34,635 bases of DNA from a virus (taxonomy: Duplodnaviria; Caudoviricetes). The notes under the pieces were generated by a model that made no database searches, was not told the origin of the DNA, and worked only from the letters and a program-made list of their open reading frames with translations. Shown here one piece after another: positions 2,532-34,458 of the stretch; position 1 is the first letter of the stretch; each line of letters opens with the position of its first letter. The stretch covers positions 1 through 34,635 of IMG/VR virus record IMGVR_UViG_3300006065_000009, one strand, 5' to 3'. The translations under genes were made by a program, and so were the position numbers.

Positions 2532-4589
2532 ATGGAGAAAGTAAATACCCCAACTATCTGTGTTAACATGATAGTTAAGAATGAACAAGCCATGCTTGCT
2601 CGTTGTCTGGACTCGGTTAAGGGTGCAGATTTCATAGTAATATCCGATACAGGTTCCCAAGATAGCACGGTAGAGATAGCAAAACGCTATACTAAACACG
2701 TCTATACCGAGTATAAATGGGAGGACTCCTTTGCTAAGGCACGTAATTTTGCCCTGTCGAAGGTGCCCAAAGAGGCCGACTGGGTATTACAGATTGATGC
2801 AGATGAAGTACTTAACGAAGGAATAGAAGCCCTTAGAGGGCTTCTGAAGGGCGTTGGGAAAGAGTATTCAATGGTTAGGATTAAGTTAATTGACGAAAAG
2901 AGTGGTAGTAGTCATATGTTTCAGAGGGTGTTTAGAAACGACCCTGCAATATCATGGCATGGTGTTGCACACAACTACTTAGTAGACACCAAAAAGAGAA
3001 AGCAGTACGACGCAACCGAGTTGATTTCTATTAACTATGGTTATTCCCCTGCCCACAAGCTAGACCCAGACAGAACATTTAGAATACTCAGTAAGGCTAT
3101 AAAGGATAATCCTCAGTTGATAAGAGAAAGGTATTATTTAGCTAGAGAGTACTTTTATAGAAATAGATGGGAGGAAACTATTAAAGAACTAGACGAATAT
3201 ATTAAGGGAAGTAGTTTTGTATCGGAAAGAAACGGCGCCTGGTTAATGAGGGCAAAGTGCCTTTCTAAGATGGGCAAGTTCCCTGAGGCGTGTGACAGTG
3301 CTTGGCAGGCGATTAAGTACAATGCTAATTTTAAAGAGGCCTTGGAGTTTATAGCTAGCCACATAGACCCAGTTAACAAGGAGAGGTGGGCTAGTTTTGC
3401 ACAGTTAGCAGACAACAGGGGGGTGTTGTTTGTCAGGGAAAACAATAAAACCCGGGATTATTTTGTAGGTGGAGATAATTCATTTCAGCCAACACTCAAT
3501 GTAAAAGACGGACTACCCATGGACCTTAATAAGGACGGGTTGTTTTACATAGAGAATTTGCTACAGAGGAAAGACAATATAGATGTTTTAGAGTGGGGTA
3601 TAGGGTTTAGTACAAAGCACTTTACACAACTACTAGACAGGGCAGGGGTGGGATTTACTTGGACTGGAATAGAACACAACGAGGCCTGGTATAAAAAGGT
3701 TAAAGATTGGGGGTTAAAAAATACTAAGTTAATACTGGCTGATAAAGAGAGTAGAGAGTACTTAGAACCAGCCGGAAAGTATGACATTATTTATGTAGAC
3801 GGGAGAAACAGGGCTATCTGCTTGCAGAACGCCAAGTCTATGCTAAAAGAGGGTGGTGTGGTACTTTTGCACGACGCACAGAGAGAAAGGTATAGGGCTG
3901 GCATGGCGGGATATTTTGGTAGGTATATTGGAAGTGAGTACCCACTTTTGTGGCAGGGAACATTGGAGCCAATAGAGAGTATTCCACAGGTTATACACCA
4001 GGTGTGGATAGGCCCTGAACCAGCTCCAACCAACTGGATAAACACTTGGAAAGAAAAGAACCCTAGCTTTGAACATAGGTTGTGGACAGAAAAGGAGATA
4101 GACAAATTAAAACTAGATAACAGGGAGCTTTATGAGAAGTACTACAGCATGGGAGAGTTTGCGTCTTGTAGCGATATTGTAAGAGCCCAGATATTAAGGG
4201 ACTTTGGAGGTATTTATATAGACGCAGACATGGAGTGTATTACCACTATAGAGAATACCCCTTTCATGGTATGGGATTTTGTCACAATTTTTGCAGTGGA
4301 CTTAGATACTCGCTTGAACAGTATTCCCCTAGGGGCCGTAAAAGGACACCCAATACTTAAAAAATGTGTAGGGGAGCAGGGAAAAATAGAAGAGCTAGAA
4401 CCAGGCTACGAGAAGGTAGGCCCAGGTTTATTAACAAAACTAGTTAAAGACAATGACAACATTTTACCTGCTTATAGTTTTGCCCCGGTGTTTCATACGG
4501 GGTATAAAAACAAACCTACAGGGCTCTGTTATGCAAGACATTCGTGGTATTCTACTCCTCGCCCGAAGAAAAAACTAAGAAGCAGTTGA
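2532..4589 (+). CDS. Multidomain protein: GT2 glycosyltransferase + TPR + SAM methyltransferase + GT32-like (DXD) glycosyltransferase
   Basis: N-terminal ICVNMIVKNE...DTGSQD...IDADE (GT2); YYLAREY/TPR helices; VLEWGIG...YDIIYVDG...GGVVLLHD (class I MTase); IPQVIHQVWIG...SDIVR...GGIYIDAD (OCH1/GT32-like). Confidence 0.85.
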   Translation: MEKVNTPTICVNMIVKNEQAMLARCLDSVKGADFIVISDTGSQDSTVEIAKRYTKHVYTEYKWEDSFAKARNFALSKVPKEADWVLQIDADEVLNEGIEALRGLLKGVGKEYSMVRIKLIDEKSGSSHMFQRVFRNDPAISWHGVAHNYLVDTKKRKQYDATELISINYGYSPAHKLDPDRTFRILSKAIKDNPQLIRERYYLAREYFYRNRWEETIKELDEYIKGSSFVSERNGAWLMRAKCLSKMGKFPEACDSAWQAIKYNANFKEALEFIASHIDPVNKERWASFAQLADNRGVLFVRENNKTRDYFVGGDNSFQPTLNVKDGLPMDLNKDGLFYIENLLQRKDNIDVLEWGIGFSTKHFTQLLDRAGVGFTWTGIEHNEAWYKKVKDWGLKNTKLILADKESREYLEPAGKYDIIYVDGRNRAICLQNAKSMLKEGGVVLLHDAQRERYRAGMAGYFGRYIGSEYPLLWQGTLEPIESIPQVIHQVWIGPEPAPTNWINTWKEKNPSFEHRLWTEKEIDKLKLDNRELYEKYYSMGEFASCSDIVRAQILRDFGGIYIDADMECITTIENTPFMVWDFVTIFAVDLDTRLNSIPLGAVKGHPILKKCVGEQGKIEELEPGYEKVGPGLLTKLVKDNDNILPAYSFAPVFHTGYKNKPTGLCYARHSWYSTPRPKKKLRSS

Positions 4590-4616
4590 CAACTATAAGC
4601 TATTAAATATAGACTG
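4587..4616 (+). promoter_or_regulatory. Sigma70-type promoter
   Basis: TTGACA-18 nt-TAGACT upstream of the ORF at 4646. Confidence 0.45.
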
Positions 4617-4645
4617 TAATTAGAATAAATTTGTTCTTCTAATTG

Positions 4646-4876
4646 ATGAGGAAAGTTATCAATGTTTTTGGTGGTGATGTCACTGCAACTACTGTCTCAA
4701 ACCCAATAGATATACTTGGTGCGCGTGGAGTAACCCTGGTTTGTAAGAGGGCTGAGCATGCTTCTGGAAGCTCTACTTTCACTGCAGAGGGGGGTGTTTG
4801 TACTAATTTTGCTAGCTATAAGAAATGGATAGACAGTGCTTCCAAGAGGACGATACTAAATAAGTTTAGTTGCTAG
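4646..4876 (+). CDS. Hypothetical small virion-region protein
   Basis: ORF behind a promoter, closely packed with the next gene. Confidence 0.5.
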   Translation: MRKVINVFGGDVTATTVSNPIDILGARGVTLVCKRAEHASGSSTFTAEGGVCTNFASYKKWIDSASKRTILNKFSC

Positions 4877-4879
4877 AAC

Positions 4880-5584
4880 ATGTTAAAAGCGTCTAACAAT
4901 GCTAGGGCCCTTCTTTCTGCAAATATAACAGCCTTAGACACGACAGTCGTTTTAGACGATGCAAGTAAGTTCCCTAGTGAGGGAAACTTTATGATTACCG
5001 TGTTTGATTCAAAGAAGAACTCTCCTATACAAGACCCAGGAATGGAAATTATGCTAGTCACTGATGTTGACGGAAACGAATTCACTGTTACAAGGGGACA
5101 GGAGGGAACTACGGCTAGTGCACATAAGGGTGGACACTATGTTGCTCAATTACTTACAACGAGGTACATAGAAGAATTACAGGAGTATGTTATTGAAAAC
5201 GCCATTCAGGGGCCCCAGGGACCTACTGGACCCCAGGGACCTATGGGAGCAGGAAGTGCCATTAGGTCGTACACATGGTCTTTAAGTGAGCCTGCAATAG
5301 GTGGAATACCCGGACCACAGTTGAAAGAGGCACATACAGCGATTAGATTATCGAGTTATGTTACCAATGGAACCTCAGTTACATTTAATATTGAAGAGAG
5401 AAGTACAATAGGAGGTACAGGAACAGACCTCCTCTCTAGCGACCAAGTGGCAACGGTAAGTGGGGCGAGTACTACCTCCTTTGCAAACAGTTCGTTGGCC
5501 GCAGACAGTTGGTTGTGGTTAGACATTTCTGCGGTAAGTGGAACCCCGGGGAATGTTGTAATAACACTAAGTTGTGAAATATAA
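4880..5584 (+). CDS. Putative tail fibre/virion appendage protein with short collagen-like linker
   Basis: N-terminal domain with EIMLVT...FTVTRGQEGTTA typical of phage appendage proteins; GPQGPTGPQGPMG; beta-rich C-terminal domain. Confidence 0.65.
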   Translation: MLKASNNARALLSANITALDTTVVLDDASKFPSEGNFMITVFDSKKNSPIQDPGMEIMLVTDVDGNEFTVTRGQEGTTASAHKGGHYVAQLLTTRYIEELQEYVIENAIQGPQGPTGPQGPMGAGSAIRSYTWSLSEPAIGGIPGPQLKEAHTAIRLSSYVTNGTSVTFNIEERSTIGGTGTDLLSSDQVATVSGASTTSFANSSLAADSWLWLDISAVSGTPGNVVITLSCEI

Positions 5585-5589
5585 AAACC

Positions 5590-6558
5590 ATGTTGAGTAC
5601 TGGGTGGAGAAATCCCTCGATGGTAAACAATGTAGACTCTGTAGGAAGCTCCTGTTGGAATGATATTAATAATGTTAAGGTAGCTAATTCAAATGGTGCC
5701 ATGGTGCTAACAGGGGTTAACACTGCATGGAGTAATATTTTTACAATGACGGTAAACGCAACGGCCGTTAACATAACTAACTGGATAGGTTCTTCTATAA
5801 ACACAAGTCCAGTCATGCCAAGTACAATAGGAGGTCGACCAGTAAGAACAGCCTTAAACACTACTTTTGGTACTAAGACGGCACTAACTGGTGCGTATAT
5901 AGGAAATGCGAAACTAACTAGTAATACCGTTGCGACGAATGGATTCCGAGCTTCGACCAATCTTTTGAAAGTAGATAAAATTCCACTTAGATTTGACGGC
6001 GGTGCAACTACTACCGTGAGGAACACTTTTAATGGTTGTTCAAATTTGGTTAATGCCCCCGTCATACCAGAGGGGGTTACTGATATGGTTAATACTTTTT
6101 CTAGTTGTACAAACCTAGTAAATGCCCCCGTCATACCAAATAGTGTTACTAATATGGCTTTTACTTTTTCTGATTGTACAAGACTAGTAAATGCTCCTGT
6201 CATACCAAACAGTGTTACTAATATGGTTTTTACTTTTTTTGGTTGTACAAACCTAGTAGATGCTCCTGTCATATCAAATAGTGTTACTAATATGTCTAAT
6301 ACTTTTTCTAGTTGTACAAACCTAGTTAATGCCCCCGTCATACCAGAGGGGGTTACTGATATGACTAGTACTTTTAGGAGTTGTACAAACCTTACAGGGA
6401 ATATTACTATCCTTAGTCCTGAAGTAGGGGCCCTGCAAAACACTTTTAATAATACTACCGCAGCTAAGACGGTTCGTGTTCCTGCGGGAAGTAATACTTA
6501 CACCAGGGCAGTTGCAAACTGGGATGGTAAAAATGGTGTTACAGTAGTAGGTATATAA
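5590..6558 (+). CDS. BspA-type leucine-rich repeat (LRR_5-like) protein with a chimeric N-terminus
   Basis: Five 23-aa repeats TFxxCTNLVNAPVIPxxVTxM; ITNWIG...VMPSTIGGRPV cap typical of BspA-like proteins. Confidence 0.8.
   Translation: MLSTGWRNPSMVNNVDSVGSSCWNDINNVKVANSNGAMVLTGVNTAWSNIFTMTVNATAVNITNWIGSSINTSPVMPSTIGGRPVRTALNTTFGTKTALTGAYIGNAKLTSNTVATNGFRASTNLLKVDKIPLRFDGGATTTVRNTFNGCSNLVNAPVIPEGVTDMVNTFSSCTNLVNAPVIPNSVTNMAFTFSDCTRLVNAPVIPNSVTNMVFTFFGCTNLVDAPVISNSVTNMSNTFSSCTNLVNAPVIPEGVTDMTSTFRSCTNLTGNITILSPEVGALQNTFNNTTAAKTVRVPAGSNTYTRAVANWDGKNGVTVVGI
6025..6393 (+). repeat. 69-bp coding tandem repeat (about 5.3 copies)
   Basis: AATGC(C/T)CC(C/T)GTCATA-type units at 6052, 6121, 6190, 6259, 6328; 6051-6087 is identical to 6327-6363. 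Confidence 0.9.
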
Positions 6559-6577
6559 ATTGTTTAATATCAACAAA

Positions 6578-7573
6578 ATGGGCAAAGAAATAGACATAAT
6601 AATACCAGCATACAAGGCCCAGAAAACGATACTAAGGACGCTAGCTTCCATAGCGACTCAAACAATATTAGAGTCTATTAGTGTAACGATAGTAAATGAC
6701 GCTGACGGAGAGGGTTATTCAAGGTTTGTTAAGCAGTTTAAAGATGTAATGGATATAAAAGAGATTACCCTAGAAACAAACGGAGGTCCTGGGGTGGCAA
6801 GACAAGCGGGTATAGATGCAACAAGGGCTCCCTACTTTACTTGTATAGACGCAGACGATACTTTTGCAAACCCTTTTGCACTAGAAATTCTACTTGCTAA
6901 TATGAAGGCAGAACCGGGATATCATACGGTAATAGGAGCTTTTGCAGAGCAACAACCAGGATTACAGTTTCTAGTTCATCAGGAGGATATGGTTTGGATG
7001 TTTGGGAAGCTGTACACAAGGGCGTTTATAGATAGGTACAATATAAGGTTTAACGACACACGGGCTAACGAGGACAATGGGTTTAATACGATAGTAAGGT
7101 TAGTGTCTTCAGAGACAGAGAAGGTTAAGTTTATACAGGATATTGTTTATTACTGGCACTATAAAGAGGATTCTATTACTAGGATAAACAATGCACAGTA
7201 TTCTTACGACCAGAGTTTTGTTGGATATACAGAGAATATGATATATGCAATTAAAAAGGCCAAAGAGGTTAAACCATTTAATAGCTATATAGACATGTGG
7301 GCTGTGCAAGTCATGGCACAGTTATATATTTATTACTATCAAACAGTTAAAAGAGACAAGCGATTTGTTAAACAGAATTACAATTCTTGTGTAAAGTATT
7401 ACAGGGAGATTTTTTATCATTATGATAGTACAATGAAAAAAGAGGACTTTGAGGCTATCTTTGGGGAGACACTGTCAGGACAGGCCCCTAACATGAAAGA
7501 CGTAGTACCAGACAAGTCCATATATGAATTTATTAAAACTTTAAAAGAGGATTCTAAGAAATGGGCGCAGTAA
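6578..7573 (+). CDS. Family 2 glycosyltransferase
   Basis: IDIIIPAYKA...IVNDAD...NGGPGVARQAG...CIDADD...ANED; ATG at 6578. Confidence 0.9.
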   Translation: MGKEIDIIIPAYKAQKTILRTLASIATQTILESISVTIVNDADGEGYSRFVKQFKDVMDIKEITLETNGGPGVARQAGIDATRAPYFTCIDADDTFANPFALEILLANMKAEPGYHTVIGAFAEQQPGLQFLVHQEDMVWMFGKLYTRAFIDRYNIRFNDTRANEDNGFNTIVRLVSSETEKVKFIQDIVYYWHYKEDSITRINNAQYSYDQSFVGYTENMIYAIKKAKEVKPFNSYIDMWAVQVMAQLYIYYYQTVKRDKRFVKQNYNSCVKYYREIFYHYDSTMKKEDFEAIFGETLSGQAPNMKDVVPDKSIYEFIKTLKEDSKKWAQ

Positions 7574-12577: not shown

Positions 12578-13341
12578 CATACGTTGTAAAACCTGGAGAT
12601 ACACTTGCGGGAATTCTAAAGAAACTAGGAGTTAGTAGCTATTCAAGTCCTGCAACATGGGCGTTGGTACGAACCAAGTCTGGAAATCCAGGTAAAATAT
12701 ACTCTGGAGAAACACTAGATTTATCTAGGGTTCTGGGTACAAGTGGCAGTTCTACTACGGCAGCAGCAACCCCAGCGCCAGAAACAGAGTCCGAGAGATT
12801 AGCAAGGCTGGCTGCAGAAAAGATACAGCGAAAAGACGCATTTCACAATAGGTTTGGAACCCTTGAACAGAACATGCCATTAGCAGCACTACAACAGTTT
12901 GCAGAACAACAAGTAAACCCAGAGGCGTTTAGAATGGCAAACGAGCAAATGAGAAACATTGATTGGAGAAGAGCTATTTCTGGAAGTGGTGCACAAATGA
13001 GCGGGTATGGTACTATGGAGAGAAGCTCAGCACTAGACCAATTAGAAAGGCAGAGAAAAGAAATGGTAGACCGGTTTGTAAATTCACAAAAGGATTTGTT
13101 TAGTGACTGGTACCGTGCAGAGCTTAATAATTACATGACAAGTGCAGACCCAAGTAATTACCAGTTGAACTTAGGTGGTTTGGGAGGTGAGTTTGCAAAA
13201 CTAGGATGGACAAACAATCCGTCTCAACCACAGAACCAGTATTCTTACAACCCAATCGATATGAGAGATTACTTTAAAAACCGGGGTGTTAGTGGGTACC
13301 AAGCGGCGCCCCTTAACAACCTTTGGGGTACTATAACTTAA
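12574..13341 (+). CDS. LysM-domain protein, putative internal virion/ejection protein
   Basis: N-terminal YVVKPGDTLAGI...NPGKIYSGETL (LysM). Confidence 0.7.
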   Translation: MTYVVKPGDTLAGILKKLGVSSYSSPATWALVRTKSGNPGKIYSGETLDLSRVLGTSGSSTTAAATPAPETESERLARLAAEKIQRKDAFHNRFGTLEQNMPLAALQQFAEQQVNPEAFRMANEQMRNIDWRRAISGSGAQMSGYGTMERSSALDQLERQRKEMVDRFVNSQKDLFSDWYRAELNNYMTSADPSNYQLNLGGLGGEFAKLGWTNNPSQPQNQYSYNPIDMRDYFKNRGVSGYQAAPLNNLWGTIT

Positions 13342-13353
13342 TAAACAATTAAT

Positions 13354-14109
13354 ATGGATATAGAGCAAAACCTAAGAGCATACGAAAGTGATATAGCCCC
13401 AGAGGCGACTATACGTAAGATAATTACAGATGCTTACGGTAGTTTAAAGCCTGAACTAGAAACTATTCACAAGTATGAAACAGAACAAATGCCAACCTTT
13501 TACGATGCCTTTAGTGGGTATGGTATGGGTACGGGTGCAGCTGACATGAGCCCATTGGCTAGGCTACAAAGTGCCAGCGAGGACGTTGCAAGAAAGAGTG
13601 CACTAGCCAGAACGGCAAGGGACGTATTTGGCGTTAACAAGGCGAGTATGGAAGACTTGATAGGGCAATCCTACAGACAGTGGCAGAGTGGTTATCAGGG
13701 TGCACAAAACGCATGGCAAAGACAAATGGCAGAGAAACAATTAGCAGCTCAAAAGGCAGCAACTGCTGCAGCAAATCGAAGGATTAATATCCCTCAGTCT
13801 CCTGGACTTAATATTCAACCTGTTGTTTCGGGTGTTAAAGATTTCTTAGATAGCAAGGTAGGGGGAGATGGAAAAGTATCTCCAAATACTTTTCAGACAG
13901 CAATGAATATGTTTAATAACCAATTAAAGGCCTTGAATATAGCTCCAGTATCAACCCAAGTATTCGCAAATGCTTTCCAAGACTATATTGACCCTACACA
14001 CGGGTGGAATTACATAGGCATGAGTAGGCCAGAAAACTTTCAGGTAACACCTTATTCACGAGACTACCTGCTAAAGCAGACACTGAGTGGTTATGGCAGT
14101 TGGAAATAA
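13354..14109 (+). CDS. Putative internal virion (ejection) protein
   Basis: Ala/Gln-rich helical protein in the position of podoviral ejection genes. Confidence 0.55.
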   Translation: MDIEQNLRAYESDIAPEATIRKIITDAYGSLKPELETIHKYETEQMPTFYDAFSGYGMGTGAADMSPLARLQSASEDVARKSALARTARDVFGVNKASMEDLIGQSYRQWQSGYQGAQNAWQRQMAEKQLAAQKAATAAANRRINIPQSPGLNIQPVVSGVKDFLDSKVGGDGKVSPNTFQTAMNMFNNQLKALNIAPVSTQVFANAFQDYIDPTHGWNYIGMSRPENFQVTPYSRDYLLKQTLSGYGSWK

Positions 14110-20843: not shown

Positions 20844-21800
20844 TTGAACCCAGAACTAGAAAAAGGAATATACACCTCCAGTAGCGAAGATAGCTTTAAG
20901 TCGGTAGACGAAATACAAAAGCAAGAAAGGGTTAGGGTGACTAAACACTTTCAAGCACCAGAGAATAAGAGTATGCAGGAGTGGTTTGATGAGATAGAGA
21001 GTAGGTCAACATTTAGAAATGGCATAGAAGATAGTGAAGAGTATTGTAAGATAGAAATAGAGAGTGATAAGCCAGTGGTCATTGGGTTGAGTGGAGACTG
21101 GCATTTAGACGGAAATATTGACCGTGATATGCTTCGAATGGATTTGGAAATAATGGCAAAGCATCCACTGATAGCGGGGAATTTTTTACTGGGAGATTTG
21201 TTAGACGCAGCAAACTTCAATCCAGCCCAAGACGAGAGTATTCTTAATTTTGAAGAGCAAAGGCAGGCCTTAATATCCATCTTAGACTATATAGGAAAGG
21301 ATAGAATACTGGGCATGTGGAAGGGTAATCATGACCACAAGTGGGAAAGAAAGCATGGTACAAGTAAGTACTCAGGGTTTAGCCAAAGGTATGAGGCACC
21401 AGTATTCTATGGTAATTCGTATATAGACTTAAACATAAATGAGATTAACTACAAGTTAATGGGGAGCCATAGGTTAAGGGGAAGTAGTATATATACCAAC
21501 GCACACCCTGCCTCAAAAGGACATAGAGAGGTGCAAGGTTTAGACATTGTGTTTTGTGGGCACACTCATAAAAGAGGAGCTACGGAACAGGCCGTGAGAG
21601 AGTTTAAGGGGGCTAGAATGACGCACGCTATTGTGAGTGGCACATACCAGAAGGGGAGCGAGTATACTAAAGACAGTGGGTTTGGTACTCAGCATGGAGC
21701 AGAGCTTGGTATGTACTGGTTAATACTTAACCACGATAAAAAACTGGTTAGGGTATGTGGTACCTTGGAAATGTTGGAAACAGTACAGGGCTATCTTTAA
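20844..21800 (+). CDS. Calcineurin-like metallophosphoesterase
   Basis: GDWH, GDLLD, GNHD, SH and GHTH motifs. Confidence 0.9.
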   Translation: MNPELEKGIYTSSSEDSFKSVDEIQKQERVRVTKHFQAPENKSMQEWFDEIESRSTFRNGIEDSEEYCKIEIESDKPVVIGLSGDWHLDGNIDRDMLRMDLEIMAKHPLIAGNFLLGDLLDAANFNPAQDESILNFEEQRQALISILDYIGKDRILGMWKGNHDHKWERKHGTSKYSGFSQRYEAPVFYGNSYIDLNINEINYKLMGSHRLRGSSIYTNAHPASKGHREVQGLDIVFCGHTHKRGATEQAVREFKGARMTHAIVSGTYQKGSEYTKDSGFGTQHGAELGMYWLILNHDKKLVRVCGTLEMLETVQGYL

Positions 21801-21890
21801 AAATTGAATAGGGATTGACAAAGACACACACAAGATATTTTGTAAAACTTACACCTACAGCCTTGTTGTCAACCCTATTGAGTTTTTAAA
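21796..21890 (+). ncRNA. Candidate stalk-closed small RNA with BoxA-like motifs
   Basis: TTTAAAAATTGAATAGGGATTGACAA pairs with TTGTCAACCCTATTGAGTTTTTAAA around a ~44-nt interior; GCTCATTAACAA follows at 21898. Confidence 0.45.
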
Positions 21891-22862: not shown

Positions 22863-22913
22863 GACGGTTTTCTTTAGTGAGTTCTACCGTTAATCCAAAG
22901 AACTGGCTACGGA

Positions 22914-22986
22914 GTATGGTGTATTTAATAAAATCGCAGGCACTGTTCCACTAGCAACAACCTGCGACCTGTTAAGTATACCATAC
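22914..22986 (+). ncRNA. Long hairpin / candidate small RNA at the arm convergence
   Basis: GTATGGTGTATTTAATA pairs with TGTTAAGTATACCATAC (3 G-U pairs); inner stem TCGCAGG/CCTGCGA. Confidence 0.45.
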
Positions 22987-23113
22987 GCCCTGCACACTAC
23001 GCTATATCTAATAACACAGGGGAAGATTATAGCCTATGGTGAGAATCTAGTTAGAAAATAAAATCCGCTTTGCTTCATAACAGGGGTATAGGCTAGTTGT
23101 GTATATACTAAGA

Positions 23114-28734: not shown

Positions 28735-28807
28735 CTTCTCTTCTGATTAAATTAAATTAAACTACTTAGCTCTTTAACTATGTCCTCAATCATCTTGTTG
28801 TGCCTAT

Positions 28808-29020
28808 CTATTGTAATTTTCTTAAAGTATCCATCATAATCTTAAATGCTACTTCATAGTTGTTGTTCTTAACGGTATTGTATATTGGATAATAAATCGG
28901 ATAGTATCTATCCCAAGTCCAGTAATTGTAGGGAAAATAGCAATTTTGTGTTGTTGCCAAAATAGTATCTACTACAGAAAATCCCCCTGCTGTACTGTGA
29001 ACATATAAACCTGTTTCCAT
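28808..29020 (-). CDS. Hypothetical Tyr/Pro-rich protein
   Basis: 70-aa ORF with AT-rich leader. Confidence 0.5.
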   Translation of the reverse strand: METGLYVHSTAGGFSVVDTILATTQNCYFPYNYWTWDRYYPIYYPIYNTVKNNNYEVAFKIMMDTLRKLQ

Positions 29021-29054
29021 CTATATAAAAACTAAACTTAAATTAAACTACTTC

Positions 29055-29186
29055 TTAATAACTCAAAATACCTACCGTTAGCCCGCACCTATAACAAGGA
29101 GTTCGGCGGTCTAATGTAATTGTCTGAAAAACAATAGTACGCCAGTTTTAATCACTCACTAACGGTAAGTATTCTCAATTATCAAA
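29055..29186 (-). ncRNA. Stalk-closed RNA unit 4 of the array
   Basis: ATAATTGAGAATACTTACCGTTAGT pairs with GCTAACGGTAGGTATTTTGAGTTAT (25 positions, 4 G-U, 1 mismatch); preceded by TAGCTCTTTGA. Confidence 0.6.
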
Positions 29187-29190
29187 GAGC

Positions 29191-29342
29191 TAATAACCTG
29201 TATGAGATACTCTGGGTAGGGTTTCTACAACTTTTAGGTATGAGACGCAGTCTCGTTGTTACCATTGAAAGTCCTATACAGATACGCTGTAGCTACTAAG
29301 ATGCAATCTATTCGCCACCAAAGTACCTCATACAAACTATTA
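29191..29342 (-). ncRNA. Stalk-closed RNA unit 3 of the array (loosely tRNA-like interior)
   Basis: TAATAGTTTGTATGAGGTACTTTGG pairs with CCAGAGTATCTCATACAGGTTATTA (25 bp, every non-Watson-Crick pair is G-U); preceded by TAGCACTTTAA. Confidence 0.6.
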
Positions 29343-29356
29343 AAGTGCTAACCATA

Positions 29357-29430
29357 CTGGGCAGTGTAGCTCGCAACACTATTCTGCCCCCGAAGTGACT
29401 TTCGCAGTAACTACCACTAGAACTGCCCAG
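29357..29430 (-). ncRNA. Structured RNA unit 2 of the array
   Basis: CTGGGCAGT/ACTGCCCAG 9-bp closing stem with internal hairpins. Confidence 0.45.
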
Positions 29431-29437
29431 AGCCAGT

Positions 29438-29567
29438 GGAGTGTGTGTCTGCTCATACGTGCGACTTCCCTTTGTATGGTAGGGTTATTCACCCCTACGA
29501 GTAGGTCCGGCGCCTTGTGAGCGTCCAACCCACCGCAGGGAGGAACTACCCCCTGTTGGATTACTCC
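29438..29567 (-). ncRNA. Structured RNA unit 1 of the array
   Basis: After TAGCTCTTTAAAATT: GGAGT/ACTCC closing stem; TCCAAC/GTTGGA; CAGGG/CCCTG; GCTCA/TGAGC; GTAGGG/CCCTAC. Confidence 0.5.
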
Positions 29568-29580
29568 GAATTTTAAAGAG

Positions 29581-29697
29581 CTACTCTCTAATCTTTCTAA
29601 ATAATTTCTTGACTATCCAGACCAAGAAAAGTACCGGAACCGCAAGTATTAAAATTCCTAATATTATTCCAAAAATTGAACCTACTAATTCTGCCAT
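29581..29697 (-). CDS. Small membrane protein (38 aa)
   Basis: MAELVGSIFGIILGILILAVPVLFLVWIVKKLFRKIRE. Confidence 0.55.
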   Translation of the reverse strand: MAELVGSIFGIILGILILAVPVLFLVWIVKKLFRKIRE

Positions 29698-30512: not shown

Positions 30513-31110
30513 TTGTTTTTAAAATTAAATTCTGGTTATCTCTAACCCACTCAATCATCTCATTATCAAAAACGACCTCCTCTAGTTCCCATGAACCGTC
30601 ATTTTTGAACACTATCACACATAAATCCTGCTTCCAGTCCATGGCGTAAGCATACATACTTAACTGCCACCTTACCTTCTTAATCTTACTACTGTCTTTT
30701 TTGTACTCCTTTCCGTTCCACGCCCCGTATGTCTTCCAATCTACTAGGGCTATTTTAGAAGTACCCTTTTTGCGAACAACCCCGTCATACCTACCTGCAT
30801 AGTTCAGCTCCTCGCACACTACCTCTTGCTCAGTACTCACCAACTCCCACTCTTTCAGAAAGCCATCAACTGCCGAGTATAACCTGCTCTCTAGCATGTC
30901 AACCTGAGGGGCTGTGAGACTCTCTAAGGCATTCATTTTGTCGCTTATGTATTCTGACACCTTATCTCCTAATACAGAGCTAGTCGCAGAGATTAAATTA
31001 CTATCTAACCCCTTGCTATCACACCATTTTGTAAAAGAACTACTATTAAATGGCTTCCTCAAGTCTATTATAGAGGTCACCGACAGATACTTACCCTCGT
31101 ATATCCTCAT
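30463..31110 (-). CDS. PD-(D/E)XK exonuclease
   Basis: YLSVTSII...EQEV...YAGRYD...LVDWKT...QLSMYAYA. Confidence 0.85.
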   Translation of the reverse strand: MRIYEGKYLSVTSIIDLRKPFNSSSFTKWCDSKGLDSNLISATSSVLGDKVSEYISDKMNALESLTAPQVDMLESRLYSAVDGFLKEWELVSTEQEVVCEELNYAGRYDGVVRKKGTSKIALVDWKTYGAWNGKEYKKDSSKIKKVRWQLSMYAYAMDWKQDLCVIVFKNDGSWELEEVVFDNEMIEWVRDNQNLILKTIEDEKYKQSNPQIKIF

Positions 31111-31112
31111 AC

Positions 31113-31556
31113 CTAAAAAGGTAAATCGTCTATATCTTCTTCTAGCATCTCTTTACTCATATCTAAAGCCCCTTGCACTTCTTCGCCCTGTCCTTTAACC
31201 CCAAACACCTTGTCTTCTAATTTCTTAACCCTTTCTTCTAATTCCTTTAAGTCTAACTCCAGTGCCTTTTTACCTGTTGCTGGTGGTTGGTAGTTAAAGT
31301 AAGTCTTACCATTAAACTCGCTTGTTGATACTGTTCCTGTTAAAGGTGTTCCTACTCCCCAATTACCAGAAACGTCAAAGTAGTCAAAGTAGGTCATCTT
31401 ACCCTTAAACTCTGGGTGGTCTACTTCTCTAGGGTCTATGTATAAATCCACCTTGGTGAAAGCGTCTCCCTTTGCAGACCTATATAGCTTCCCGTTCTGG
31501 TCTTCCTTGTTTCTAAATATCTTGTCTATAATGCAGTTTTCTATGGAATATTCCAT
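31113..31556 (-). CDS. Putative single-stranded DNA-binding protein
   Basis: OB-fold-sized beta region and acidic tail EEDIDDLPF; next to the exonuclease. Confidence 0.6.
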   Translation of the reverse strand: MEYSIENCIIDKIFRNKEDQNGKLYRSAKGDAFTKVDLYIDPREVDHPEFKGKMTYFDYFDVSGNWGVGTPLTGTVSTSEFNGKTYFNYQPPATGKKALELDLKELEERVKKLEDKVFGVKGQGEEVQGALDMSKEMLEEDIDDLPF

Positions 31557-31732: not shown

Positions 31733-32087
31733 CTTGTTTACTTTTTAATAATTTAATTTCTTCTCTTTGCTCGAGAATTATCTCTTTAGCCCTTTTTAAT
31801 TTCTCGTCATACTCCTGCGACAACTCTACCCTTAGCTTATCAATAGATTCGTTTCTGGTCTCCTTAATACTATCTGCTTTTTCTCTTATGTCTTCTTTTA
31901 GTTTGTTAAAGTACTCTTCTGTAAGCCTTTGTATCTGCTTGTCTATCTCTTTCGCTTCCATACCCTGCTCAATGTATTTAGATATCGCTACGGTAAGCCC
32001 AACATTAGAAAAAGGTACGCCCTCAATCGGCTCTTTATATGTAGCCTCTACATATATTTGCTCTTTCCCTTCTGGTATTGTATTCAT
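31701..32087 (-). CDS. Hypothetical coiled-coil protein
   Basis: 128-aa ORF. Confidence 0.6.
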   Translation of the reverse strand: MNTIPEGKEQIYVEATYKEPIEGVPFSNVGLTVAISKYIEQGMEAKEIDKQIQRLTEEYFNKLKEDIREKADSIKETRNESIDKLRVELSQEYDEKLKRAKEIILEQREEIKLLKSKQDGNYNIKKVS

Positions 32088-32104
32088 ATTTATTAATTAA
32101 TAAT

Positions 32105-32335
32105 TTAACCCATATCATCTGCACAAACTTCGCAGATATACCCAGTTCCATAACTAACCGACCTCATACTGTCCTTTGGTAATAATTCGCCACACCTAAT
32201 ACACTCTCCCATATCCTCCTCTATAACTGGTTCAAACTGGTCAATATCAATCTCTGTATTCTCCTCATCATCTTCCCATACTCCATTGCCGTTTCTCACT
32301 CCGTTCTCATCAAACCCTTCGGGTATGTTATTCAT
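32105..32335 (-). CDS. Acidic Zn-finger protein
   Basis: CIRC...CEVC. Confidence 0.6.
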   Translation of the reverse strand: MNNIPEGFDENGVRNGNGVWEDDEENTEIDIDQFEPVIEEDMGECIRCGELLPKDSMRSVSYGTGYICEVCADDMG

Positions 32336-32480
32336 GTAAATAAATATAATAATTTAGATTACCCTTAATCACTAAGCAAGGACTGTAAGTAGTGGTACAG
32401 GTCGGCTTCCTGTCTAACCTTGTACCTCGGCTGTTTTCCTTTCTAAACTAACCACTACATACTTGACATCTTTCTGTTTT

Positions 32481-32509
32481 ATGCTAACACTATACAGCCC
32501 AGTTGTCAA
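32481..32509 (-). promoter_or_regulatory. Sigma70-type promoter
   Basis: TTGACA-17 nt-TAGCAT on the minus strand. Confidence 0.55.
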
Positions 32510-32520
32510 TGCCTTATAGT

Positions 32521-32910
32521 TTAGATAACTATAAGGCTATACCCTATTTCTTCAAGCTCTTTCTTAAGGTCTTTGTACTGCTCTGGGGTTGCCTTTTTGC
32601 ACTTTAGCAAGCTCTTGTCGGCGTCCCCATGCTGTCCCACATGCTGATAGGACATAATGTAGCCATTGATTCCCTTTTCTTCTGGGAATAGTGCTACTAC
32701 TTCATCTTTGAAGATTACAAACTTTACTTTTGTTCCCCTCTCTACTTCCTCTATGTCCTTTCCTACTACAAAGTAAACCTCGTCTGCTTGGTTTGTACAC
32801 TCCCCACGCTCTAATGCCTCTTGTACTAATTGCTTTGCTTGGTCTTCATCTGTAGCTTCTACTTCTACGTAGAAAGGTGTAGTATCTACTGAAACGCTAT
32901 ATGTTTTCAT
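32521..32910 (-). CDS. Early protein with DpnD/PcfM-like N-terminus
   Basis: MKTYSVSV...VEVEATDEDQAKQLV; C-terminal VVALFP...IMSYQHVGQH. Confidence 0.6.
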   Translation of the reverse strand: MKTYSVSVDTTPFYVEVEATDEDQAKQLVQEALERGECTNQADEVYFVVGKDIEEVERGTKVKFVIFKDEVVALFPEEKGINGYIMSYQHVGQHGDADKSLLKCKKATPEQYKDLKKELEEIGYSLIVI

Positions 32911-32940
32911 ATAAATAAAATATAATAATTTAGATAATTA

Positions 32941-32969
32941 ACTATAGCATTTTCCCTTCTAGTTGTCAA
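32941..32969 (-). promoter_or_regulatory. Strong sigma70-type promoter
   Basis: TTGACA-17 nt-TATAGT with TGn extension. Confidence 0.75.
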
Positions 32970-33044
32970 GTGGTGTTCTCTTTGTTCTCTTCTAGCTCTT
33001 GTATGGGTGTTCTCTTCTTGCTCTTTAAACTGTTAGACATATCA

Positions 33045-33072
33045 AAACAAAAGGCGGTATGTTACAACCGCC
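33045..33072 (-). terminator. Intrinsic terminator
   Basis: GGCGGT-tgtaacat-ACCGCC followed by TTTTGTTTT on the minus strand. Confidence 0.7.
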
Positions 33073-33082
33073 CTATGTTTTT

Positions 33083-33265
33083 TTAATTTTCCTCTTTCAT
33101 TATTCCGTCTATACTTAATATCTCGCCTATTTCCTCGTTTTTAAACTCTTGCTCTACCTCTCTGTATTCTCCGTTCTCATACTTTTGCTCTGCCTCCTCT
33201 TTACTCTCTGCTTCTACTTCATATTCTGTGAAGCAATCAGTCTTTGTGTAGATACGGTATATCAT
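33083..33265 (-). CDS. DpnD/PcfM-like small protein
   Basis: EYEVEAESKEEAEQKYENGEY. Confidence 0.65.
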   Translation of the reverse strand: MIYRIYTKTDCFTEYEVEAESKEEAEQKYENGEYREVEQEFKNEEIGEILSIDGIMKEEN

Positions 33266-33283
33266 AACATTTAATATAATAAT

Positions 33284-33475
33284 TTAGATGTCTAACTCTT
33301 CTATTCTCTCTTTTAGCTCTTCAAGGGCGTGTACAACCTTCAGTATGTCGTAATAATCGATGTCCTTGAGGTCTGTGTCATCAATATCCCTTAACTTGTC
33401 TCTTAAGATTTTTATGTTGTTTTCATCGGCTTGAAGTAAATCTTTTAGATACTGATTGTATCTGAATGCCTTCAT
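33284..33475 (-). CDS. Hypothetical protein
   Basis: 63-aa ORF flanked by the leader motif. Confidence 0.6.
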   Translation of the reverse strand: MKAFRYNQYLKDLLQADENNIKILRDKLRDIDDTDLKDIDYYDILKVVHALEELKERIEELDI

Positions 33476-33492
33476 AGATATAAAATAATAAT

Positions 33493-33660
33493 TTAGATGA
33501 TATATAACTCTACTATTTCGAGGGCATACCCATTCTGCTTATATACAATGTCTTTTATTTTGTATTCCGCTTCTTGGATGTCGTTAGCCTCGAGCCTTAG
33601 TACTTGACTCTCTCCCTTACCATCGGAGAGCCTATACTTAAAATGAGCATAAAATCTCAT
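33493..33660 (-). CDS. Small hypothetical protein (55 aa)
   Basis: MRFYAHFKYRLSDG...LEANDIQEAE; flanked by the leader motif. Confidence 0.6.
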   Translation of the reverse strand: MRFYAHFKYRLSDGKGESQVLRLEANDIQEAEYKIKDIVYKQNGYALEIVELYII

Positions 33661-33714
33661 AACTTTAAATATTAATAATTTAGATATGTAATATATAAAA
33701 CTTAATATACTACT

Positions 33715-33738
33715 AAAAGGGCGTATCCCTACGCCCTC
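33715..33738 (-). terminator. Intrinsic terminator
   Basis: GGGCGTA-ggga-TACGCCC followed by TTTT on the minus strand. Confidence 0.7.
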
Positions 33739-33750
33739 TCTAGTATGATA

Positions 33751-34146
33751 TTAAATAACCCTGTAATCACTTGCTAGGCTATTCCACGAGCTAGTAAACG
33801 ACTTACCAACCCTTACAGGTTTGGCTATTTCCTTCTTTGTTAGTACTGTATTGTAGAACGTGTAGAGCAAATCAAAACCCATATCCATGCCACAACCACC
33901 GACCTTTACAGGCTCAGGGCTAATTTTGTTGTTGTATATACAGTTTAGTATTCTATTGTGTGAAAGTTTAAACCCGAAACGTCTTGTCATACCCGACTTG
34001 CTAACTTTTAGACTACAATAAACCTCTCTCCTTTTCATATCTCTCAATAGTTCCTTGATATCTTCTGTAAAGTTTTCGAAACTGTAAAATGTCTTATCAC
34101 CTTTTAGCCCTTCATATATTTTCGCTAATTCTTTCTTGTTCTTCAT
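33751..34146 (-). CDS. Conserved phage early hypothetical protein
   Basis: Probable start 34146; VSKSGMTR...VGGCGMDMGF motif. Confidence 0.65.
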   Translation of the reverse strand: MKNKKELAKIYEGLKGDKTFYSFENFTEDIKELLRDMKRREVYCSLKVSKSGMTRRFGFKLSHNRILNCIYNNKISPEPVKVGGCGMDMGFDLLYTFYNTVLTKKEIAKPVRVGKSFTSSWNSLASDYRVI

Positions 34147-34157
34147 AATATTTAATA

Positions 34158-34310
34158 TTAATAATTTAAAATAAACGCCAATATTAAACCCGCTAAAAAT
34201 AACAGAACGCACAACCCTAGTACTTGAAGCAATAGGGCGAACGCAAACGCCCAGAAGGATGTGTCGCTATCCTTTTGTATATCTCTCCACGACTTACTAA
34301 TACTTGCCAT
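34158..34310 (-). CDS. Small membrane protein (50 aa)
   Basis: MASISKSW...FAFALLLQVLGLCVLLFLAGLILAFIL. Confidence 0.5.
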   Translation of the reverse strand: MASISKSWRDIQKDSDTSFWAFAFALLLQVLGLCVLLFLAGLILAFILNY

Positions 34311-34314
34311 TTTA

Positions 34315-34458
34315 TTATCTTAAAATTTTATATCCGTTATCTACCAACAACATCATCAATTCTATAGAGTTCATAGAGCCAAGCCCCTTTATTGTGGCCT
34401 TTTCTCCGTCCTCTCTTACCCTAATGACGTGTTTACCTTTCACGTATATTGTAAACAT
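34315..34458 (-). CDS. Small hypothetical protein (47 aa)
   Basis: MFTIYVKGKHVIRV...; has the leader motif and an upstream promoter. Confidence 0.55.
   Translation of the reverse strand: MFTIYVKGKHVIRVREDGEKATIKGLGSMNSIELMMLLVDNGYKILR

Follow-up and report, generated by a model that had tools for sequence, protein, structure and literature searches.

Host RNase III cuts between the genes of phage T7, and the non-coding RNA GOLLD occurs within phage tRNA arrays. A polycistronic phage transcript can also be the precursor of stable RNAs, as the cited section on the species I and II RNAs of T4 describes (PMC2330249), and polycistrons of irregular tRNAs and allo-tRNAs, odd-armed arrays thought not to serve translation, are described in the part of Mukai et al. 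drawn on here (PMC5389517). In E. coli, boxA is both necessary and sufficient for the rrn complex, which holds the 5' end of the RNA and lets the rest loop out up to the point at which the trailer pairs, and the leader-trailer helices are cleaved by RNase III, according to the cited sections of two reports (PMC10250234, PMC8632103). Phages use boxA as well, in the lambdoid nut sites covered by a section of the first of these (PMC10250234), and the BoxA consensus is given as GYTCTTTAANA in the cited passage of a further report (PMC5725501).

Here we describe an array of about 540 nt in a 34.6-kb virus record (Caudoviricetes; IMG/VR record IMGVR_UViG_3300006065_000009; CheckV completeness 75%), the whole of which, 34,635 nt, was analysed and is called the window below. 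Two of its three BoxA-like words stand, as in rRNA operon leaders, at the base of 20-35-bp helices (stalks) that close an RNA, and the head sequence is shared. Unlike those leaders, the phage stalks enclose 40-230 nt of unrelated RNA rather than rRNA, and they are repeated in tandem and scattered between genes. They differ from nut sites and the T7 cleavage sites in enclosing multi-helix interiors instead of simple hairpins, and from phage tRNA clusters in that the window has no tRNA gene and its units are new, individually wrapped and reshuffled. The clade of the window also has arrays of odd-armed tRNA-like sequences, in which it resembles the allo-tRNA polycistrons as presented in the cited part of PMC5389517. 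However, the tRNA-like module of the window (module T) has neither a conserved anticodon arm nor an encoded CCA, its acceptor-like stem is prolonged into a stalk, and 102-172 nt lie between the acceptor ends; BoxA stalks are not described for allo-tRNA polycistrons in the sections of that paper drawn on here. No description of such an arrangement of wrapped RNA modules was found in the literature searched, where supplementary motif tables might hold modules H or P. Our reading, which we hold to be probable, is that the array is a cassette for the rRNA-style expression and excision of new small RNAs, probable protein-binding mimics or decoys.

Genomic context

The plus strand of the window carries capsid-like, tail-like and M23 lysis genes, and the array lies in a minus-strand operon together with an exonuclease, a RusA-like resolvase and many small genes (Table 1). 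Contigs from two DNA runs bridge the array with zero differing letters; these runs come from one sample, which may be the source of the record itself. The public runs listed for this DNA comprise four DNA runs, all of that sample, and no RNA run. Searches with Pfam and PHROGs assigned no family to the 38-aa ORF upstream of the array, recognised no N-like protein among the window proteins, and found no integrase or recombinase family among the 55 window proteins of this 75% complete record. An upstream 160-aa protein had no homologue. An annotated phage collection held nothing similar to the window DNA except three short chance matches, and no match to the exonuclease. Among the plus-strand structural genes there are also two glycosyltransferase genes and a BspA-type leucine-rich-repeat gene (2532-7573), and a 22-bp stalk with no BoxA word occupies the gap where the operons converge (22890-22992, plus strand).

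A Shine-Dalgarno-like word was seen at only 6 of the 56 gene starts in the window, and a TAAATT-like word lies about 20 nt before the start codon of many window genes, for example in 32087-34458 on the minus strand. We presume that the host is a bacterium that lacks Shine-Dalgarno pairing, perhaps one of the Patescibacteria. The neighbours of the M23 peptidase in the Atlas fall into viral, Bacillota and Chloroflexota clusters and indicate no single host. The array transcript likely originates from two promoter-like sites about 2.9 kb upstream, which are consensus matches of a kind whose genome-wide count does not exceed that in shuffles.

Table 1. Positions of the array, its parts and neighbouring features in the window
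Feature	Position	Strand	Remarks
Sigma-70-type promoter-like sites (two)	32969-32941, 32509-32481	-	near-consensus; 11/12 and 10/12 matches
38-aa hydrophobic ORF	29581..29697	-	hydropathy 3.16; just upstream of the array
BoxA-like word 1	29569..29583	-	exact GYTCTTTAANA; heads the array, overlaps the stop codon of the 38-aa gene
Module H (unit 1)	29481..29552	-	long hairpin, core 29492-29548; z -4.37
Module P (unit 2)	29353..29478	-	closed RNA of ~125 nt with pseudoknot; GGGCA loop, tandem G-A
Pseudoknot of P	29464-29460 with loop 29375-29371	-	
BoxA-like word 2	29350-29335	-	one mismatch to GYTCTTTAANA; heads the stalk of module T
Module T (unit 3)	29190..29350	-	25-bp stalk headed by word 2
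Inner 15-bp helix of T	29332-29318 with 29215-29201	-	near-invariant
BoxA-like word 3	29192-29177	-	one mismatch to GYTCTTTAANA; heads the stalk of module S
Module S (unit 4)	29050..29192	-	27-35-bp stalk headed by word 3; z -5.54
Stalk arms of S	29185-29159 with 29081-29055	-	
70-aa ORF	28808..29020	-	start region directly after the 3' arm of S
11-nt complement of word 1	28767..28777	-	duplex -16.9 kcal/mol
Fifth BoxA-like stalk	21792..21890	+	after a metallophosphoesterase-like gene; CA-rich loop

Motifs and folding of the array

An earlier note on this DNA had placed three BoxA-like motifs on the minus strand, and all three are there; a 16-letter pattern fitting two of them has 2 matches, as opposed to 0 in each of 100 shuffles. 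The motif had been said to recur at unit starts. This holds for three of the four units: unit 2 has none, and word 1 heads no local stalk (duplex -17.9 kcal/mol). The 11-nt complement of word 1 that lies beyond module S is possibly its long-range partner or a relic 3' arm. Of the four units, each said to have a closing stem, two are stalk-wrapped, and these stalks, which had been put at about 25 bp, measure 27 and 25 bp; the count of G-U at 9 of 10 non-Watson-Crick stalk positions on the minus strand was reproduced.

The earlier note saw no listed ORF in the 540 nt. Short ORFs of 31-49 aa do overlap the array, but the A-rich skew of coding sequence is missing (A 0.27 versus 0.40 in the downstream genes). 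Folding of 29030-29600 gave z -6.05 on the minus strand versus -2.42 on the plus strand, relative to shuffles. Folded singly, unit 3 has z -3.08 (units 1 and 4 are given in Table 1). Unit 2 on its own (z -0.68) does not exceed its shuffles in stability, so that the case for it depends on homologues.

None of the units matches a known family. Rfam models, including those for riboswitches, ribozymes, Y RNA, 6S RNA, GOLLD and ROOL, had no match in the window at E up to 1, and at E up to 10 there were only sub-gathering matches in the array region and in relatives. ARAGORN found neither a tRNA nor a tmRNA in the window. Rfam also detected no 16S or 23S rRNA inside the wrappers, and mimicry of an rRNA fragment or of 5S rRNA was rejected, the candidate being a mere 11-nt match (E 0.075).

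Four modules and their relatives

Relatives were gathered through exonuclease homologues (70 matches including the window's own; an alignment of 52 yielded 31 metagenome and 9 viral loci) and through an exact unit-3 pattern, which gave 25 viral stretches, 8 of them with a complementary arm. We compared 11 whole relative records, and module counts are given over 19 records. From one relative to another the units vary in what they contain, in their order and in where they lie, the first two of which the earlier note had proposed to check: P stands alone in L038, T occurs alone or after H in G001, G002 and G010, and in L066 the order is H, then other units, then P. Covarying pairs are present in H, P, T and the S stalks. 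These comparisons show the 540-nt stretch to be four separate modules rather than one RNA, and H, P, T and the S stalk to be conserved as structures that recur in other orders and gene contexts. Across the arrays, no partner gene was found to travel with them. A link to small membrane genes was dropped as not general, since the neighbour is hydrophobic in 8 of 19 arrays and short in four of these. Viral pattern scans added no new copies (2 matches in unrelated context in one, 33 in another, of which 1 was real and already known).

Module H ends in a tip with a bulged base, a 4-bp stem and a CAC(A/G)A loop, and this tip recurs in G002, G010 and L038. Over these three and the window, 95% of cells pair and 6 of 10 pairs have changed on both sides, in a structure derived from the same four sequences on which it was scored. 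The covariation score was reached by 0 of 500 shuffles, and slid controls pair at 32-50%. L066 and L042, neither of them used for training, also have copies that a model of H detects (E about 0.002), as have, more weakly, L065 and G001; the model found nothing in 101 cellular genomes, a search run without a positive control. All 4 matches to an H descriptor lie inside arrays; as control loops match too (1, 1, 0 and 6 times), this count alone proves little.

Module P is present in 4 copies among the 19 records (window, L038, L066 and G011), and a model built from three of them finds the fourth at E 3e-8. One strand of its pseudoknot comes after a conserved AAG.GAAG word, and the other is a terminal loop. 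Because MAFFT misaligned these strands, their pairing was tested by script: the cognate combinations form 5, 5, 6 and 6 bp versus 1-2 bp in all 12 non-cognate combinations. The outer stem of the terminal hairpin is paired at 6 of 6 positions in all four copies, and in three a 3-nt bulge is followed by a tandem G-A element that may be kink-turn-like. A second pseudoknot was dropped as in L066 its strand pairs in a nested helix. P adjoins the following stalk in the window and in G011, and in L038 a gene comes next instead. Nothing was found with the P model in 141 cellular genomes (again with no positive control); viral pattern scans gave 8 matches, none of them P-like, and a further one gave a single match, the already known G011 copy.

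An exact-pattern count, which misses divergent copies, puts module T at 9 copies in 8 of 19 records. In those carriers with a recognised exonuclease gene, its identity to that of the window is 34-60%; the capsid genes of the carriers run from 77% identity down to undetected. In the inner helix, 12 of 15 pairs never vary among the 9 copies, two of these being G-U. Out of 26 pairs, 7 show compensatory change, and these all belong to the outer part. This invariance is partly by construction, because an exact pattern taken from the helix was what led to four of the eight T-bearing records; the helix is also present in four copies in G001, G002 and G013 that were found via the exonuclease. One copy has a core of just 46 nt, which suggests that the helix can matter without cargo. 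An exact scan of GTDB with the helix gave 19 matches, in two of which a loose arm-like word lies at a distance of 229 and 333 nt. As none of them continues as a module, they offer no support for T as a piece of a host gene or an attachment site.

The interior of T was compared with tRNA. A 7-bp acceptor-like stem is present in all copies. Of the 8 long copies, 5 have a D-like stem of 3 Watson-Crick pairs (chance 0.07-0.13 each) and 6 a T-like stem of 5 bp, two of which have a loop insert of 63-70 nt; G010 and G011 share one interior. The tRNA model RF00005 scores two other copies below its cutoff and has no match on the unit 3 of the window, and one copy passes a strict test of tRNA features. 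Since D and T stems occur in most long copies and sub-cutoff tRNA scores were obtained, the family may be described as tRNA-derived or tRNA-shaped, not as a tRNA. The hallmarks of tmRNA are absent as well, the acceptor-like stem having U3-A70 in place of G3-U70 and no CCA. The window's own copy, which has no Watson-Crick D stem and only a 4-bp partner for the T stem, has lost most of its tRNA features, so the earlier idea of tRNA mimicry fits the homologues of unit 3 but not that unit itself, which fails the tRNA tests.

BoxA-headed stalks and rRNA leaders

No homologue was found for the interior of module S. The record G014 has the same stalk ends around an unrelated interior of 230 nt, and 36 of 37 nt on the 3' side are identical to the window. 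In 11 S stalks, a set selected for pairing, the bases at positions 16-26 are free to vary but remain paired in 10-11 of the 11, and pairing drops to 4-6 of the stalks at positions 1-4 of the BoxA word. Across 16 chosen stalks there are 72 G-U versus 16 A-C. An IMG/VR scan with the S consensus and one gap range returned 6 matches, none with a stalk, and so gave no sign of a spread beyond this clade.

How closely stalks and BoxA words are associated was assessed from both directions. A scan of non-coding segments made 53 stalk calls, a number that includes both-strand duplicates and misses the G-U-rich unit 4. A BoxA word with at most one mismatch stands at the head of 10 and with at most two mismatches at the head of 20, versus 1.1% and 4.8% of random windows, and 43 have no BoxA word within one mismatch. 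The exact word GYTCTTTAANA occurs 21 times versus 3 for the reversed word, and only 3 of the 21 head a stalk. With a looser BoxA motif, chosen after seeing the data, a strong duplex is found at 13 of 119 sites; random sites and sites of the reversed motif have one in 48 of 1500 and 0 of 57 cases. Real tRNA genes, too, can follow BoxA-like words: this is so at 2 of 5 tRNA loci, the background being 0.035 per 450 nt.

The resemblance to rRNA operons that the earlier note proposed stands, in that a long stalk has a BoxA-like word at its base, like the leader-trailer helices of cellular 16S and 23S rRNA. By eye, 13 of 22 cellular 16S leaders have a BoxA-like word in or just before the best-pairing arm, in a sample of two phyla and one Chloroflexota genome, and one cellular 23S stalk is built in the same way. 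A profile from 18 cellular leaders, whose training sites were chosen by a rule written after seeing both sets, ranks stalk heads of G014 at the top (22.8 and 20.3 bits) and gives unit 4 of the window 13.0 bits. At 13 bits or above, 5 of its 14 matches head stalks, and none of the 3 that the reversed profile gives does so. The best 30 matches of the cellular profile do not include words 1 and 2 of the window, and word 3 has the G found in most cellular leaders compared. The stalk heads resemble cellular 16S and 23S leader arms. The profile also led to the fifth stalk of the window, which has a counterpart in G014. Stalks with other interiors lie near the same metallophosphoesterase-like gene in G002, G010 and G014.

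Possible functions and alternative explanations

The wrapper copies a known signal, and the cargo families have no Rfam match. That the array is a processed cassette we regard as likely; that its products are decoys we advance tentatively. In the proposed sequence of events, the upstream promoters would transcribe the array, and NusB-S10 would load at word 1, which is exact and free. The loaded complex would protect the 540 untranslated nt from Rho, words 2 and 3 would anchor their 5' arms until the 3' arms emerge, and RNase III would cut the two stalks and release the interiors of T and S, with H-P left as a third piece. In the weakest step, the products would titrate host proteins. T could serve as a decoy in the shape of a tRNA, recognised by its invariant helix and not by an anticodon, and P and H could be ligands of fixed shape. 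Helices and loops that stay invariant while the bodies around them vary are in keeping with recognition by host proteins, which favours mimic or decoy RNAs, and decoding by T is excluded by the missing anticodon arm. A stretch of the unit 3 interior (29232-29244) is complementary over 13 nt, without a mismatch, to the start region of the exonuclease gene (31106-31118) and can also pair with the unit's own 5' arm; antisense action on start regions of the phage's own genome was rejected as a general role, this match (1 of 23 units) being unrepeated in the 22 others.

The main rival holds that stalks and BoxA words act only in cis, as sites for antitermination loading and RNase III cleavage between genes in the manner of nut and T7 sites, and that the interiors are filler or local regulators. 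The position of S stalks, which end just before gene starts, agrees with this, as do the almost empty T copy and the fast turnover of interiors, that of S having no homologue. However, P and H have no stalk around them, and both their sequence and their covarying structure are retained from phage to phage; T interiors retain the D stem in 5 of 8 and the T stem in 6 of 8 long copies, and one cut needs no tandem stalks. We consider it unlikely that the cis role is the whole story. A decaying tRNA operon, with pseudo-tRNAs and left-over stable-RNA signals that have no present function, is improbable. True tRNAs in relatives, sub-cutoff matches to the tRNA model in G001, G012 and G005, and D regions of some T copies that read by eye like those of class II tRNAs would suit decay, whereas 12 of 15 core pairs invariant in 9 T copies, at least four of them found without the helix, would not, and the covarying pseudoknot of P is no tRNA relic. 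That P is a self-cleaving ribozyme which aids the release of units is also improbable: its compact fold, covarying pseudoknot and invariant joining bases, and its place directly before a stalk in the window and G011, are set against the lack of any Rfam ribozyme match, the gene rather than stalk that follows it in L038, and a total of only 4 copies.

Two further alternatives concern the array as a unit and the DNA itself. The 540 contiguous nt at z -6.05 and the 11-bp long-range complement could be parts of a single large non-coding RNA comparable to GOLLD or ROOL, but modules occur singly and in other orders (L038, G001, G002, G010, L066) and Rfam gave no match, which makes this hardly credible. 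A role at the DNA level, with the arms as recombination boundaries or as single-strand hairpins for cassette exchange, is highly improbable. Near-identical arms do flank unrelated interiors in the window and G014 (36/37 nt), and G-T wobble also stabilises single-stranded DNA; yet the favoured strand is the transcribed one, the stalk heads match rRNA leader signals, and none of the 55 proteins of this 75% complete record matched a family of integrases or recombinases. How the modules move may still be explained by recombination at the arms.

Should the processed-cassette reading be true, phages would be making stable RNAs of their own by hijacking the pathway of rRNA antitermination and RNase III, without an N-like protein, and the BoxA-headed stalk would be a searchable flag for phage non-coding RNA genes that Rfam and ARAGORN miss, as the finding of the fifth unit illustrates. 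H, P and T constitute three new RNA families with covariation support. The rapid exchange of modules between related phages is as expected of arms-race effectors, of which, to our knowledge, few RNA examples exist. A wider picture, conceivable though doubtful, is that this phage clade uses the rRNA signal as a reusable wrapper around an exchangeable library of small-RNA effectors, including a decoy on a tRNA scaffold and a pseudoknotted, possibly catalytic class, which together would make an RNA-only kit for counter-defence or host takeover.

Further arrays in related records

Other arrays were noted in the relatives. Those at 21629-21701 of G005 (minus strand; L134) and 500-900 of G006 (plus strand; L136) are homologous and BoxA-headed, with a hairpin followed by a closed RNA of 165 nt; the G006 array continues with tRNA-Met, and that of G005 with a CCA-ended tRNA-like RNA that has no normal D or anticodon arm. 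Additional arrays lie in G009 (13100-13480, minus strand), L061 (2720-2885), L065 (2630-2780) and G010 (4570-5130, minus strand). Those of G009, G010 and L061 sit after a gene of 216-231 aa with a hydrophobic start, and a hairpin module with a GGRYAG loop is common to G009, L061 and L065. A non-coding module of about 110 nt, 72-87% alike, is shared by G001 (7250-7520, minus strand), G002 (4700-5130, minus strand) and L048 (2555-2760); it lies downstream of BoxA-like words and has a short look-alike, seen by eye, at 32330-32480 of the window. In the tRNA array of L198, a 167-kb virus record, the frame of a tRNA with D and T arms is kept, and about 100 nt take the place of the anticodon arm.
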